Positions 242-61,769 of a stretch of 64,000 bases of DNA are shown in pieces. Positions within the stretch are counted from its first letter, which is position 1. The number at the start of each line of letters is the position of its first letter. The DNA lies in the NCBI GenBank assembly GCA_964016885.1, contig OZ024746.1, forward strand, positions 78,182,001 through 78,246,000. Direction: 5' to 3'. The position numbers and the translations under genes are program-made. Below the pieces are notes generated by a model. It was not told the DNA's origin. It saw nothing but the letters and a program-made list of their open reading frames with translations, and searched no databases. This stretch comes from Eledone cirrhosa (lineage: Eukaryota).

Positions 242-3200
242 TTAACCCATTAGAATTTAAACTGGCCATGTCTGGCCAGAATTCTCTCACCTATTTCTGT
301 TGAAACTGGCTATAAATAAGTAACATCAAAATCTCATAGATTCGATATTATGTGAGATAATCATGTAAGATAGAGCCTTTACTGTGAAAATACAATAGTA
401 AATATAGAGTAATGTAAGTGTTACGTGAGATAATCATGTAAGATAGAGCCTTTACTGTGAAAATACAATAGTAAATATAGAGTAATGTAAGTGTTACGTG
501 AGATAATCATGTAAGATAGAGCCTTTACTGTGAAAATACAATAGTAAATATAGAGTAATGTAAGTGTTATGTGAGATAATCATGTAAGATAGAGCCTTTA
601 CTGTGAAAATACAATAGTAAATATAGAGTAATGTAAGTGTTATGTGAGATAATCATGTAAGATAGAGGAGCCTTTACTGTGAAAATACAATAGTAAATAT
701 AGAGTAATGTAAGTGTTATGTGAAATAATCATGTAAGATAGAGGAGCCTTTACTGTGAAAATACAATAGTAAATATAGAGTAATGTAAGTGTTATGTGAG
801 ATAATCATGTAAGATAGAGGAGCCTTTACTGTGAAAATACAATAGTAAATATAGAGTAATGTAAGTGTTATGTGAGATAATCATGTAAGATAGAGCCTTT
901 ACTGTGAAAATACAATAGTAAATATAGAGTAATGTAAGTGTTATGTGAGATAATCATGTAAGATAGAGCCTTTACTGTGAAAATACAATAGTAAATATAG
1001 AGTAATGTAAGTGTTATGTGAGATAATCATGTAAGATAGAGCCTTTACTGTGAAAATACAATAGTAAATATAGAGTAATGTAAGTGTTATGTGAGATAAT
1101 CATGTAAGATAGAGCCTTTACTGTGAAAATACAATAGTAAATATAGAGTAATGTAAGTGTTATGTGAAATAATCATGTAAGATAGAGGAGCCTTTACTGT
1201 GAAAATACAATAGTAAATATAGAGTAATGTAAGTGTTATGTGAGATAATCATGTAAGATAGAGCCTTTACTGTGAAAATACAATAGTAAATATAGAGTAA
1301 TGTAAGTGTTATGTGAGATAATCATGTAAGATAGAGCCTTTACTGTGAAAATACAATAGTAAATATAGAGTAATGTAAGTGTTATGTGAGATAATCATGT
1401 AAGATAGAGCCTTTACTGTGAAAATACAATAGTAAATATAGAGTAATGTAAGTGTTATGTGAGATAATCATGTAAGATAGAGCCTTTACTGTGAAAATAC
1501 AATAGTAAATATAGAGTAATGTAAGTGTTATGTGAGATAATCATGTAAGATAGAGCCTTTACTGTGAAAATACAATAGTAAATATAGAGTAATGTAAGTG
1601 TTATGTGAAATAATCATGTAAGATAGAGGAGCCTTTACTGTGAAAATACAATAGTAAATATAGAGTAATGTAAGTGTTATGTGAGATAATCATGTAAGAT
1701 AGAGCCTTTACTGTGAAAATACAATAGTAAATATAGAGTAATGTAAGTGTTATGTGAGATAATCATGTAAGATAGAGCCTTTACTGTGAAAATACAATAG
1801 TAAATATAGAGTAATGTAAGTGTTATGTGAGATAATCATGTAAGATAGAGCCTTTACTGTGAAAATACAATAGTAAATATAGAGTAATGTAAGTGTTATG
1901 TGAGATAATCATGTAAGATAGAGGAGCCTTTACTGTGAAAATACAATAGTAAATATAGAGTAATGTAAGTGTTATGTGAGATAATCATGTAAGATAGAGC
2001 CTTTACTGTGAAAATACAATAGTAAATATAGAGTAATGTAAGTGTTATGTGAGATAGAGCCTTTACTGTGAAAATACAATAGTAAATATAGAGTAATGTA
2101 AGTGTTATGTGAGATAATCATGTAAGATAGAGCCTTTACTGTGAAAATACAATAGTAAATATAGAGTAATGTAAGTGTTATGTGAGATAATCATGTAAGA
2201 TAGAGCCTTTACTGTGAAAATACAATAGTAAATATAGAGTAATGTAAGTGTTATGTGAGATAATCATGTAAGATAGAGCCTTTACTGTGAAAATACAATA
2301 GTAAATATAGAGTAATGTAAGTGTTATGTGAGATAATCATGTAAGATAGAGCCTTTACTGTGAAAATACAATAGTAAATATAGAGTAATGTAAGTGTTAT
2401 GTGAGATAATCATGTAAGATAGAGCCTTTACTGTGAAAATACAATAGTAAATATAGAGTAATGTAAGTGTTATGTGAGATAATCATGTAAGATAGAGCCT
2501 TTACTGTGAAAATACAATAGTAAATATAGAGTAATGTAAGTGTTATGTGAAATAATCATGTAAGATAGAGGAGCCTTTACTGTGAAAATACAATAGTAAA
2601 TATAGAGTAATGTAAGTGTTATGTGAGATAATCATGTAAGATAGAGCCTTTACTGTGAAAATACAATAGTAAATATAGAGTAATGTAAGTGTTATGTGAG
2701 ATAATCATGTAAGATAGAGCCTTTACTGTGAAAATACAATAGTAAATATAGAGTAATGTAAGTGTTATGTGAGATAATCATGTAAGATAGAGCCTTTACT
2801 GTGAAAATACAATAGTAAATATAGAGTAATGTAAGTGTTATGTGAGATAATCATGTAAGATAGAGCCTTTACTGTGAAAATACAATAGTAAATATAGAGT
2901 AATGTAAGTGTTATGTGAGATAATCATGTAAGATAGAGCCTTTACTGTGAAAATACAATAGTAAATATAGAGTAATGTAAGTGTTATGTGAAATAATCAT
3001 GTAAGATAGAGGAGCCTTTACTGTGAAAATACAATAGTAAATATAGAGTAATGTAAGTGTTATGTGAGATAATCATGTAAGATAGAGCCTTTACTGTGAA
3101 AATACAATAGTAAATATAGAGTAATGTAAGTGTTATGTGAGATAATCATGTAAGATAGAGCCTTTACTGTGAAAATACAATAGTAAATATAGAGTAATGT

Positions 3201-3937
3201 AAGTGTTATGTGAGATAATCATGTAAGATAGAGCCTTTACTGTGAAAATACAATAGTAAATATAGAGTAATGTAAGTGTTATGTGAGATAATCATGTAAG
3301 ATAGAGGAGCCTTTACTGTGAAAATACAATAGTAAATATAGAGTAATGTAAGTGTTATGTGAGATAATCATGTAAGATAGAGCCTTTACTGTGAAAATAC
3401 AATAGTAAATATAGAGTAATGTAAGTGTTATGTGAGATAGAGCCTTTACTGTGAAAATACAATAGTAAATATAGAGTAATGTAAGTGTTATGTGAGATAA
3501 TCATGTAAGATAGAGCCTTTACTGTGAAAATACAATAGTAAATATAGAGTAATGTAAGTGTTATGTGAGATAATCATGTAAGATAGAGCCTTTACTGTGA
3601 AAATACAATAGTAAATATAGAGTAATGTAAGTGTTATGTGAGATAATCATGTAAGATAGAGCCTTTACTGTGAAAATACAATAGTAAATATAGAGTAATG
3701 TAAGTGTTATGTGAGATAATCATGTAAGATAGAGCCTTTACTGTGAAAATACAATAGTAAATATAGAGTAATGTAAGTGTTATGTGAGATAATCATGTAA
3801 GATAGAGCCTTTACTGTGAAAATACAATAGTAAATATAGAGTAATGTAAGTGTTATGTGAGATAATCATGTAAGATAGAGCCTTTACTGTGAAAATACAA
3901 TAGTAAATATAGAGTAATGTAAATGCTAAAGGGTTAA
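242..3937. mobile_element. piggyBac-like non-autonomous MITE, internally expanded by a satellite
   Basis: TTAA (242-245) + CCCATTAGAATTT ... AAATGCTAAAGGG + TTAA (3934-3937): 11/13 TIR match with TTAA target; unexpanded relatives at 5990-6203 and 59755-59950. Confidence 0.8.
348..3922. repeat. 73-bp tandem satellite, about 49 copies
   Basis: Unit GTGAGATAATCATGTAAGATAGAGCCTTTACTGTGAAAATACAATAGTAAATATAGAGTAATGTAAGTGTTAT; 76-bp (+GAG) and 60-bp (13-bp deletion) variants. Confidence 0.97.
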
Positions 3938-15308: not shown

Positions 15309-15786
15309 AATGTATGTATGTAAGTGTTATTATGTGCATGTATTATTATGTGTATATGTATATATATATATATATATATGTATGTATATATATTATGTGT
15401 ATATGTATATATATATATGTATGTATTTATATATATATATATATATATATGTATTTATATATATATATATGTATTTATATATATATATATATATATAAAA
15501 ACAAATAACGAAACGAAATTAAATTTCGTTTCGCTTCTAACTCACTTTTGTATGACTGACGCTTAAACAATTAAGTTAAAGTGTACATCTACATATGTAT
15601 ACGGAAGTATTAGTATGCATATAAATACACACATGTATACATATGTACATGTACTCAGCTTTTCACTAGACACTTTACAGTGAGTGTCAGCTAGTCTGTA
15701 TGTAACCACACAGACGGACCGGGTTTTAGAGTCATACGGGTTTTCAAGGAAACACATTTCCTCTATTCTCCAGAGGGCCAGACAGG

Positions 15787-15831
15787 AATATTGGACTAGT
15801 TTCGATGTTATTACATCTCATCAGCAATATT
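15787..15831 (-). ncRNA. Type I hammerhead ribozyme (minimal), array copy 1
   Basis: Minus strand reads AAUAUUG CUGAUGA GAUGU aaua ACAUC GAAA CUAG UC CAAUAUU: full core, stems I and II, palindromic stem III ACUAGU, GUC site. Confidence 0.88.
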
Positions 15832-16255
15832 TACCCATCTTCCGGCTTCTCTGGAGAATTGTAAAAGCACATATCGTTATATGCTTTTTCTATGAAAATT
15901 AGTAGTGGGTAGACTAATTTGCATAGAACGTGAGTCATTGTACGCACCGGTTCAGCGGAAACGATAAAAACAAATAACGAAACGAAATTAAATTTCGTTT
16001 CGCTTCTAACTCACTTTTGTATGACTGACGCTTAAACAATTAAGTTAAAGTGTACATCTACATATGTATACGGAAGTATTAGTATGCATATAAATACACA
16101 CATGTATACATATGTACATGTACTCAGCTTTTCACTAGACACTTTACAGTGAGTGTCAGCTAGTCTGTATGTAACCACACAGACGGACCGGGTTTTAGAG
16201 TCATACGGGTTTTCAAGGAAACACATTTCCTCTATTCTCCAGAGGGCCAGACAGG

Positions 16256-16300
16256 AATATTGGACTAGTTTCGATGTTATTACATCTCATCAGCAATATT
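16256..16300 (-). ncRNA. Type I hammerhead ribozyme, array copy 2
   Basis: Identical to 15787-15831 (+469). Confidence 0.88.
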
Positions 16301-16724
16301 TACCCATCTTCCGGCTTCTCTGGAGAATTGTAAAAGCACATATCGTTATATGCTTTTTCTATGAAAATTAGTAGTGGGTAGACTAATTTGCATAGAACGT
16401 GAGTCATTGTACGCACCGGTTCAGCGGAAACGATAAAAACAAATAACGAAACGAAATTAAATTTCGTTTCGCTTCTAACTCACTTTTGTATGACTGACGC
16501 TTAAACAATTAAGTTAAAGTGTACATCTACATATGTATACGGAAGTATTAGTATGCATATAAATACACACATGTATACATATGTACATGTACTCAGCTTT
16601 TCACTAGACACTTTACAGTGAGTGTCAGCTAGTCTGTATGTAACCACACAGACGGACCGGGTTTTAGAGTCATACGGGTTTTCAAGGAAACACATTTCCT
16701 CTATTCTCCAGAGGGCCAGACAGG

Positions 16725-16769
16725 AATATTGGACTAGTTTCGATGTTATTACATCTCATCAGCAATATT
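16725..16769 (-). ncRNA. Type I hammerhead ribozyme, array copy 3
   Basis: Identical to 15787-15831 (+938). Confidence 0.88.
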
Positions 16770-16857
16770 TACCCATCTTCCGGCTTCTCTGGAGAATTGT
16801 AAAAGCACATATCGTTATATGCTTTTTCTATGAAAATTAGTAGCCGGAAGATGGGTA

Positions 16858-16902
16858 AATATTGCTGATGAGATGTAATAACATCGAAACTAGTCCAATA
16901 TT
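16858..16902 (+). ncRNA. Type I hammerhead ribozyme, array copy 4
   Basis: AATATTG CTGATGA (16865-16871) GATGT AATA ACATC GAAA (16886-16889) CTAG TC CAATATT; predicted cleavage after C16895. Confidence 0.9.
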
Positions 16903-17326
16903 CCTGTCTGGCCCTCTGGAGAATAGAGGAAATGTGTTTCCTTGAAAACCCGTATGACTCTAAAACCCGGTCCGTCTGTGTGGTTACATACAGACTAGCT
17001 GACACTCACTGTAAAGTGTCTAGTGAAAAGCTGAGTACATGTACATATGTATACATGTGTGTATTTATATGCATACTAATACTTCCGTATACATATGTAG
17101 ATGTACACTTTAACTTAATTGTTTAAGCGTCAGTCATACAAAAGTGAGTTAGAAGCGAAACGAAATTTAATTTCGTTTCGTTATTTGTTTTTATCGTTTC
17201 CGCTGAACCGGTGCGTACAATGACTCACGTTCTATGCAAATTAGTCTACCCACTACTAATTTTCATAGAAAAAGCATATAACGATATGTGCTTTTACAAT
17301 TCTCCAGAGAAGCCGGAAGATGGGTA

Positions 17327-17371
17327 AATATTGCTGATGAGATGTAATAACATCGAAACTAGTCCAATATT
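17327..17371 (+). ncRNA. Type I hammerhead ribozyme, array copy 5
   Basis: Identical motif, CTGATGA at 17334; cleavage after C17364. Confidence 0.9.
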
Positions 17372-17795
17372 CCTGTCTGGCCCTCTGGAGAATAGAGGAA
17401 ATGTGTTTCCTTGAAAACCCGTATGACTCTAAAACCCGGTCCGTCTGTGTGGTTACATACAGACTAGCTGACACTCACTGTAAAGTGTCTAGTGAAAAGC
17501 TGAGTACATGTACATATGTATACATGTGTGTATTTATATGCATACTAATACTTCCGTATACATATGTAGATGTACACTTTAACTTAATTGTTTAAGCGTC
17601 AGTCATACAAAAGTGAGTTAGAAGCGAAACGAAATTTAATTTCGTTTCGTTATTTGTTTTTATCGTTTCCGCTGAACCGGTGCGTACAATGACTCACGTT
17701 CTATGCAAATTAGTCTACCCACTACTAATTTTCATAGAAAAAGCATATAACGATATGTGCTTTTACAATTCTCCAGAGAAGCCGGAAGATGGGTA

Positions 17796-17840
17796 AATAT
17801 TGCTGATGAGATGTAATAACATCGAAACTAGTCCAATATT
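17796..17840 (+). ncRNA. Type I hammerhead ribozyme, array copy 6
   Basis: Identical motif, CTGATGA at 17803. Confidence 0.9.
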
Positions 17841-18264
17841 CCTGTCTGGCCCTCTGGAGAATAGAGGAAATGTGTTTCCTTGAAAACCCGTATGACTCTA
17901 AAACCCGGTCCGTCTGTGTGGTTACATACAGACTAGCTGACACTCACTGTAAAGTGTCTAGTGAAAAGCTGAGTACATGTACATATGTATACATGTGTGT
18001 ATTTATATGCATACTAATACTTCCTTGTACATATGTAGATGTACACTTTAACTTAATTGTTTAAGCGTCAGTCATACAAAAGTGAGTTAGAAGCGAAACG
18101 AAATTTAATTTCGTTTCGTTATTTGTTTTTATCGTTTCCGCTGAACCGGTGCGTACAATGACTCACGTTCTATGCAAATTAGTCTACCCACTACTAATTT
18201 TCATAGAAAAAGCATATAACGATATGTGCTTTTACAATTCTCCAGAGAAGCCGGAAGATGGGTA

Positions 18265-18309
18265 AATATTGCTGATGAGATGTAATAACATCGAAACTAG
18301 TCCAATATT
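18265..18309 (+). ncRNA. Type I hammerhead ribozyme, array copy 7
   Basis: Identical motif, CTGATGA at 18272. Confidence 0.9.
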
Positions 18310-18733
18310 CCTGTCTGGCCCTCTGGAGAATAGAGGAAATGTGTTTCCTTGAAAACCCGTATGACTCTAAAACCCGGTCCGTCTGTGTGGTTACATACAG
18401 ACTAGCTGACACTCACTGTAAAGTGTCTAGTGAAAAGCTGAGTACATGTACATATGTATACATGTGTGTATTTATATGCATACTAATACTTCCGTATACA
18501 TATGTAGATGTACACTTTAACTTAATTGTTTAAGCGTCAGTCATACAAAAGTGAGTTAGAAGCGAAACGAAATTTAATTTCGTTTCGTTATTTGTTTTTA
18601 TCGTTTCCGCTGAACCGGTGCGTACAATGACTCACGTTCTATGCAAATTAGTCTACCCACTACTAATTTTCATAGAAAAAGCATATAACGATATGTGCTT
18701 TTACAATTCTCCAGAGAAGCCGGAAGATGGGTA

Positions 18734-18778
18734 AATATTGCTGATGAGATGTAATAACATCGAAACTAGTCCAATATT
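18734..18778 (+). ncRNA. Type I hammerhead ribozyme, array copy 8
   Basis: Identical motif, CTGATGA at 18741. Confidence 0.9.
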
Positions 18779-18995
18779 CCTGTCTGGCCCTCTGGAGAAT
18801 AGAGGAAATGTGTTTCCTTGAAAACCCGTATGACTCTAAAACCCGGTCCGTCTGTGTGGTTACATACAGACTAGCTGACACTCACTGTAAAGTGTCTAGT
18901 GAAAAGCTGAGTACATGTACATATGTATACATGTGTGTATTTATATGCATACTAATACTTCCGTATACATATGTAGATGTACACTTTAACTTAAT

Positions 18996-19047
<52 letters not shown>

Positions 19048-19124
19048 CATATATATATATATATAAATACATATATATATATATATAAATACATATATAT
19101 ATATATACATATATATAAATACAT

Positions 19125-19201
<77 letters not shown>

Positions 19202-19281
19202 TGTTTGTGTATATATATATATGTGTGTGTGTATGTATGTATATATAAATATATATTTATGTATATATATATATGTATGTA

Positions 19282-19339
<58 letters not shown>

Positions 19340-19769
19340 TGTGTGTGTGTCTATGTATATATATATACACACACACACATACACACACACACATACACAC
19401 ATACACACACATATATATATATGTATATATACATGTATGTGTGTTTGTTGTGCATATGTTTTCCTCTTTTTATTCATAAACCCTTTCTTTTCTATGTTGA
19501 ACAGTGTGATTACCTTTTCATATTGGCTTTTGTTTTCTAGTCAAGAATTCCTCCTCCTTTCCTTTTCAGCCCTGATTATATCTTTCCACGGCCCCTCCAC
19601 CTCCCCCTCCACCCCACCTTCATCATCAGAGTGAAATATTAATTAGTACCAATCTTAGAAGAACAATAGAACTGCTATAATTCTTTCATATCTCTGTCTG
19701 TCTCCTATTAATTAATCCCGTCAATAACAGCAACAGCAACAGCTTGAAATAATAAGAAATAACTCTCCT

Positions 19770-61708: not shown

Positions 61709-61769
61709 TATTCTATTATATATATTTCAAGTGTACCAAAACTTTGGTACGCTCTCATCAGATAAAATA
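61709..61769 (-). ncRNA. Type I hammerhead ribozyme (family B) within element 61662-62068
   Basis: UAUUUUAU CUGAUGA GAG C GUACCAA..UUGGUAC A CUU GAAA UAUAUAU A AUAGAAUA. Confidence 0.65.

Follow-up and report, generated by a model that had tools for sequence, protein, structure and literature searches.

In L1 twin priming, reverse transcription of the RNA is primed from each strand of the target, and the two cDNA products end up back-to-back, frequently with microhomology at the join. Priming by the second strand is opportunistic in its position, and the two copied segments lie side by side with hardly any overlap.

Non-LTR retrozymes were defined in 2020 by Cervera and de la Pena (PMC7229834) and in a review (PMC7761336); these sources show that circles occur in other animals, and they propose that the cDNA spans several laps and that Penelope elements act as mobilisers. 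A Penelope origin was argued by Li, Clavereau, and Pollet (2026; bioRxiv 10.64898/2026.07.22.740005) from co-occurrence and from terminal-repeat homology. For Penelope-like elements themselves, Craig et al. (2021; PMC8557442) described an adjacent inverted 5′-truncated copy, a tail at one end, and (TA)n targets; the tail was ascribed to endonuclease resolution, and the mechanism was called undefined. A purified Penelope-like protein was reported to cut and extend both strands of AT-rich DNA and to start at two internal RNA sites that bound the genomic tail (Frangieh et al. 2024; PMC11167929). Priming in that in vitro system needed no homology, and the two start sites served either strand without difference. 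The mobilisation of retrozymes and the tandem or inverted insertions of Penelope elements are stated as open in the accessible text of PMC7761336, PMC8557442, and bioRxiv 10.64898/2026.07.22.740005.

The locus described here, found in a 64,000-nt stretch of the Eledone cirrhosa genome (the window), belongs to a family of short ribozyme-bearing repeats with about 1,900 copies. Like the metazoan non-LTR retrozymes as described in the accessible text of PMC7229834, PMC7761336, and bioRxiv 10.64898/2026.07.22.740005, it has low-GC tandem units with a type I hammerhead in each, a palindromic minimal helix III, a self-paired monomer, and a dispersed distribution as dimers to multimers. Whereas the retrozymes presented in those portions of the three sources are head-to-tail repeats with no motif pointing to a mobiliser, divergent arms, two fixed ends, and chimeras with Penelope were found here. 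Many Xenopus retrozyme families are described there as sharing homology with the terminal repeat of their partner, whereas none was found for the Eledone unit. The inverted 5′-truncated adjacent copy, the one-ended tail, and the (TA)n target resemble those of Neptune and Naiad Penelope-like elements, as far as these are covered by the available text of PMC8557442. Likewise, the Penelope-like elements studied in vitro have two internal reverse-transcription starts bounding a tail, with both strands cut and extended (PMC11167929, accessible part), as is proposed for the retrozyme. In contrast to the Penelope-like elements of these two sources, the retrozyme appears to be non-coding, its tail is 74 nt long instead of 30–40 nt, and its arms are many laps long. 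Its putative start sites end in AT/TA-like bases with possible primer pairing, unlike the homology-free priming reported in vitro (PMC11167929), and a strict pairing of one long with one short end was counted in the retrozyme, which we set against the descriptions of Penelope-like elements available in PMC8557442 and PMC11167929.

Structure of the insertion in the window

The insertion consisted of two back-to-back arms placed in (TA)n, and the hammerhead-sense 3′ ends of both arms faced outward, each joined to (TA)n (Table 1). Unit positions were numbered from the first base past the hammerhead cut. All laps of the insertion were identical except for the substitutions at 18025 and 18027. The first-pass annotation of this DNA had reported a 2-nt AG overlap of the arms at 16842–16843, non-integer arm lengths of 2.9 and 4.6 units, and outward-pointing 3′ ends joined to (TA)n at two different registers. 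The exact overlap was found again, the arms measured 2.88 and 4.59 laps of the 469-nt unit, and the two ends lay at unit ~299 and 225, in agreement with this description. Within the family, the flagged junction is unexceptional. The interruptions of the (TA)n tracts at 15420–15477 and 19040–19123 of the window were mutual reverse complements, which is a minority pattern in the family.

Table 1. Features of the two-armed insertion, in window coordinates
Feature	Position	Strand	Remarks
Left (TA)n target tract	15353..15494	.	three copies of an 8-nt interruption inside
Left arm	15495..16843	-	1,349 nt, 2.88 laps; from unit 358 (inner, 5′) to 299 (outer, 3′; long fixed register)
74-nt "tail" (unit 226-299)	15495..15568	-	lies between the two fixed registers; long hairpin inside; terminal on this arm only
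Type I hammerhead, left arm	15787..15831	-	more copies at 16256-16300 and 16725-16769; positions from arm symmetry
Unpaired spacer, 53 nt	16789..16841	.	centre of the inverted repeat
AG overlap of the arms	16842..16843	.	chance-level alone
Right arm	16842..18996	+	2,155 nt, 4.59 laps; from unit 416 (inner, 5′) to 225 (outer, 3′; short fixed register)
Type I hammerhead, right arm	16858..16902	+	helix III minimal and palindromic; cleavage predicted 3′ of 16895 (GUC); repeats at +469, +938, +1407, +1876
Two substitutions, the sole ones of the insertion	18025..18027	+	at 18025 and 18027; no mirror in left arm
Right (TA)n target tract	18997..19367	.	the left interruption occurs four times as its reverse complement

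The repeat unit and its class

The unit was 469 nt long with 36.9% GC and was arranged head-to-tail in tandem. Motif and fold analysis found the type I hammerhead core and stems in all eight full copies in the window (8/8), and the hammerhead seams of the whole family were canonical in 340 of 345 passes, with no indels. An Rfam gathering scan of the window gave no matches and missed the hammerhead. The monomer was predicted to be strongly self-paired (−163.8 kcal/mol, z = −12.75), with none of 100 shuffles equally stable. A whole-unit search of the own genome yielded 430 matches in the 39 places scored from 726 candidates. There was no match in the window by tblastn with three RT-bearing frames; a frame with RT and GIY-YIG was absent from the retrozyme and was carried by a separate family. 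Its sequence places the element among the non-LTR retrozymes, a known class to which it adds a new member, with the architecture of Penelope-like insertions. In a commoner subfamily (about 90% alike; L070–L219), the predicted cut site read GUU instead of GUC (226 seam passes against 114).

Fixed registers of the outer ends

To describe the ends, a first set of 39 loci, including the window, was picked by whole-unit match regardless of ends, and 26 of these 39 loci were two-armed. The outer 3′ ends of this set were located at unit 222–232 or 293–300, which represent 4% of the unit, in 63 of 65 cases. There were thus two fixed registers about 74 nt apart, a long one at unit ~299 and a short one at 224–230, and a long end was paired with a short end in 23 of the 26 two-arm loci, the exceptions being L031, L034, and L064. 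The exact left-end junction was present in 1,940 copies genome-wide, against 0 for the reversed control pattern; the right-end pattern gave 549 rows, a number that includes overlapping duplicates and refers to the window's subfamily only.

An anchored sample used the first 97 of the 100 left-end places listed, which came from a single contig; without the duplicate L099 it comprised 96 loci. Since these loci were chosen on the long end, the sample cannot test that end, for which the first set provides the test. Opposite arms of at least 16 nt that abutted (TA)n ended at 222–232 (2.3% of the unit) in 61 of 63 cases and at another register in two. By the script rule, 61 loci had an opposite arm of at least 16 nt ending at 222–232 on (TA)n, and nine had a tiny arm from the short register. 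The remainder contained 10 single-armed loci, 10 loci with other sequence, of which four also ended at 224–230 as assessed by eye, and four loci that ran beyond the fetched DNA, leaving 92 closed loci. An inverted second arm was present in 70 of the 92 by the same rule, and 10 of the 92 were without a second arm. Arms from the long site were not halted at the short site, as arms of 74 nt or less numbered 8 of 95 with 7.8 expected.

The insertions showed a target preference for (TA)n. Interruptions in the flanks were shared directly in 27/70 (13.4 when shuffled) and in inverted orientation in 22/70 (13.6 when shuffled), and mirrored flanks were rejected as a rule of the family, direct sharing being no less frequent; a target-site duplication is unreadable inside (TA)n. 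Shared fixed termini in all copies had been named in the first-pass annotation as an observation that would speak against its reading. They were found for the outer ends, whereas the register of the inner junction varied. The fixed outer ends strengthen two-ended priming because a long end is combined with a short one, which is also the pattern of Penelope-like elements.

Inner junctions and the relation between the arms

Inserted bases were found at 15 of 60 inner junctions, and 15 of the 45 direct joins were blunt. Among these direct joins, 18 of 45 had an overlap of at least 2 nt, where random joins on the unit would give 17.7% (p = 4e-4), and 12 of 45 had one of at least 3 nt, where 6.4% would be expected (p = 2e-5). 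Microhomology is a tendency of the family and not a requirement. Joining by microhomology had been proposed from the window alone; it drew support from the family-wide enrichment, but the window's own AG was at the level of chance, given the proportion of random joins that overlap by 2 nt or more. The inner registers occurred throughout the unit, and the two registers of a junction lay slightly closer together than under a uniform distribution (KS p = 0.011). A 65-nt insert of unknown origin was caught at one inner junction (L198:797–861) and a 143-nt LINE-like RT fragment at another (L118).

At 20 of the 60 junctions neither arm fitted inside the other, which excludes a fold-back origin at those junctions, and in L070 and L075 the arms were disjoint with no common sequence. 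Arm lengths were symmetric (33 versus 27), and the coupling between them was weak (rho 0.25, p = 0.051). The two arms of a locus differed by 0.65% from each other and by 3.5% from other loci in their subfamily, and the within-locus figure was the lower of the two in 39 of 40 loci (p = 5e-8). Locus-private variants were present in every lap of both arms, for example in L047 and L044, and one variant was fixed in a single arm in L045 and L050. This comparison showed that both arms came from one template sequence, not necessarily from one molecule; later arm-to-arm conversion could be a partial source of the shared haplotype. The exceptions to arms of the same sequence were three chimeras with Penelope. 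Descent of both arms from one RNA sequence, as in 39 of 40 loci here, is also a property of L1 twin priming. The retrozyme differs from L1 in that both priming sites have a fixed position, whole laps are common to the two arms, and two arms are the majority outcome.

The template and the number of laps

The arms crossed the predicted ribozyme cut site 201 times and stopped at positions 1–5 twice, and no pile-up of cDNA stops was seen at the cut. The rare stops and the intact seams indicated that a cleaved linear monomer was not the usual template. Excesses of stops at unit 1–26 (13 versus 6.3) and 209–234 (15 versus 7.2) were lost after correction for 18 bins. The insertion at L085 contained 12.9 + 6.8 laps without a variant, and that at L047 contained 11 laps with two private variants throughout; such very long uniform insertions agree with a monomer circle. 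On the other side, L104, L067, and L129 had variants in the outermost lap of both arms, as expected from a multimer.

Variants common to only some laps numbered 28 in 30 multi-lap loci, 21 of them in one arm and seven across arms, those of the three loci just named included, and the lap number is therefore not purely a record of reverse transcription. Partial-lap variants within one arm are due to later DNA duplication or conversion, and some arrays gained laps afterwards at the DNA level. L101 had a period-3 variant in one arm, and L068 had quasi-periodic variants; the alternating pattern of L068 was first taken as the mark of a dimer circle, and later DNA duplication explains it better. We propose a repeating RNA as the template, which would be a monomer circle with slightly better than even chances, while an uncleaved multimer or a multimeric circle would come somewhat short of even. 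The earlier suggestion of several rounds of synthesis, as on a circle, was supported as to the several laps, but with the outer ends fixed the end registers are no longer evidence for a circle.

Penelope-like elements and the likely enzyme

In two loci (L087 and L109) the opposite arm terminated in 3′ sequence of one Penelope-like family, here called the first, and in L118 in that of a second Penelope-like family. These chimeras of retrozyme and Penelope accounted for 3 of the 92 closed anchored loci; since they span two families, the mobilising partner is not pinned to one family. The first family had an intact 784-aa frame in many copies, with RVT_1 and GIY-YIG matches and a CX4CxxC linker, which is given as a feature of the Neptune and Nematis clades in the available text of Craig et al. 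(2021; PMC8557442). The likely enzyme is a Penelope-like RT/GIY-YIG protein acting in trans. The strict long and short pairing of the retrozyme is not predicted by the in vitro system as far as described in PMC11167929, because both sites were used alike there and without homology.

The intact element of the first family, a young two-frame Penelope-like element (L165:3863–8663, L166–L184), had a 4.7-kb tandem unit, in which a 455-aa frame without a Pfam match overlapped the 784-aa RT and GIY-YIG frame. Its two (TA)n-joined ends were about 39 nt apart, and a long and a short end were combined in 11 of 11 two-ended copies among the 40 loci examined. No hammerhead core was present in one full 4,734-nt unit of this element, comparison of its sequence, terminal repeat included, with the retrozyme unit gave low-complexity matches only and no real similarity, and none of the fetched loci held a partner with sequence in common with the retrozyme unit. 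Because the intact element has neither a hammerhead nor homology to the unit, it is a candidate and not an identified partner.

Proposed mechanism and alternative explanations

We consider it probable that the 469-nt hammerhead retrozyme was inserted in (TA)n through twin priming by a Penelope-like RT/GIY-YIG protein in trans, with both ends of the break priming at two fixed sites. The Penelope-like enzyme would cut both strands of (TA)n, and AT-ended DNA 3′ ends would start at the U/A-rich sites on either side of the hairpin, so that each end of the break would prime at one of the two fixed internal RNA sites. Each cDNA would then run a random distance through the ribozyme seam, with a mean of about 860 nt and up to 13 laps, after which the cDNA 3′ ends of both arms would be joined end to end. 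The first-pass annotation had put forward that the two ends of a break in (TA)n each primed at a register of its own, and this was well supported by the two fixed ends paired long with short and by the 20 of 60 junctions that rule out fold-back.

One-ended priming followed by fold-back, in which the cDNA would snap back and be copied into the second arm until an endonuclease resolved the product at the second fixed site, appears unlikely. It would account directly for the shared haplotype, and endonuclease resolution was already proposed for the one-ended tail (Craig et al., PMC8557442, accessible text). The mild closeness of the inner registers compared with uniform and the junctions of L091 and L218, which lie on palindromes or hairpins, also fit with it, and its geometry is possible at 40 of 60 junctions, including that of the window. 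However, these 40 would need fold-back in both directions (28 versus 12 loci), and the other 20 rule it out, with the arms of L070 and L075 disjoint. Moreover, the changes at 18025/18027 are without a mirror in the window's left arm, and the opposite arm is a different element at three loci. A later rearrangement of the DNA by hairpin-mediated inversion or unequal exchange, or two independent insertions in the same (TA)n tract, is more improbable still. Duplication at the level of laps is indeed visible (period 3 in L101, quasi-periodic in L068, and arrays over 14 kb in L073 and L122), and neighbouring insertions in (TA)n tracts are numerous in this genome. Rearrangement nevertheless leaves the single fixed register of the second arm unexplained, even for arms of 6–15 nt, and with independent insertions the locus haplotypes would not match in 39 of 40 loci, nor would the arms meet without (TA)n between them.

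The differing ends of the window and its non-integer arm lengths were also compatible with priming of both ends at arbitrary, permuted registers of a circle, as the first-pass annotation had claimed. We give such priming almost no credence, as the fixed outer registers refute it: the left-end junction recurs identically 1,940 times, and 63 of the 65 outer ends fall within windows that make up 4% of the unit. A long-read fold-back or an assembly artefact is very improbable, even though the arms are about 100% identical, the interruptions in the (TA)n flanks mirror each other, and no independent read covers the window junction. The flanks show no inverted similarity beyond the tracts, the unequal arms end at two family-wide registers, the inner junctions vary between loci, and a short-read contig from another run joins both arm orientations, at other registers. 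No reads across the window junction were found in four sequencing runs; these came from other samples or species, and the missing spanning read is therefore not evidence of absence. Read-end pile-ups in a RAD-seq run were located at AATT sites and are likely library artefacts. The two-armed feature is real.

The element class and the inverted and tail architecture are known already. What is new is the rule counted in a retrozyme, namely one long and one short fixed end, together with one haplotype, arms that are not all fold-backs, and chimeras with Penelope. In titles and abstract openings, with sparse coverage of subscription papers and supplements, neither one fixed start per break end nor two-armed retrozymes were found, and the word "inverted" had 0 occurrences in the accessible text of PMC7229834. 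The retrozyme family thus provides a countable insertion footprint, which ties retrozymes to the Penelope machinery by mechanism, beyond co-occurrence. For tests in vitro, the family also offers start sites predicted at exact positions, a short RNA, and an intact protein as a candidate, and the counted rule makes both of the stated open questions directly testable. We tentatively suggest that Penelope-type integration may be two-ended by default: a dimer would break (TA)n and bring one DNA end to each fixed start site without terminal-repeat homology, and both polymerases would roll up to a dozen laps on the retrozyme circle by strand displacement. If this is true, the thousands of two-armed copies would preserve in the genome the traces of twin rolling-circle reverse transcription, and both the inverted and tail structure of Penelope elements and the movement of animal retrozymes would be explained.

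Related repeats in the genome and the window

A sister retrozyme family (L183, L201, L051, L196, and L048) had a unit of about 500–520 nt with an internal (TA)n tract and was about 65% alike. It had its own long and short ends, matching the two-end pattern, and at L144 it was joined directly to Penelope sequence. Some single arms had grown into satellite-like arrays, over 14 kb in L073 + L220 and L122 + L224 and over 6 kb in L192 and L203, with internal rearrangements in some laps. The insertions at L098 and L099 were identical and 17.7 kb apart, representing a segmental or assembly duplicate. In the window, a different hammerhead-like motif was located beside (TA)n at 61714–61768 on the minus strand and was also found at L062; it is probably the end of another Penelope-type family. 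A 73-nt tandem array with about 49 copies and higher-order structure occupied positions 348–3922 of the window.
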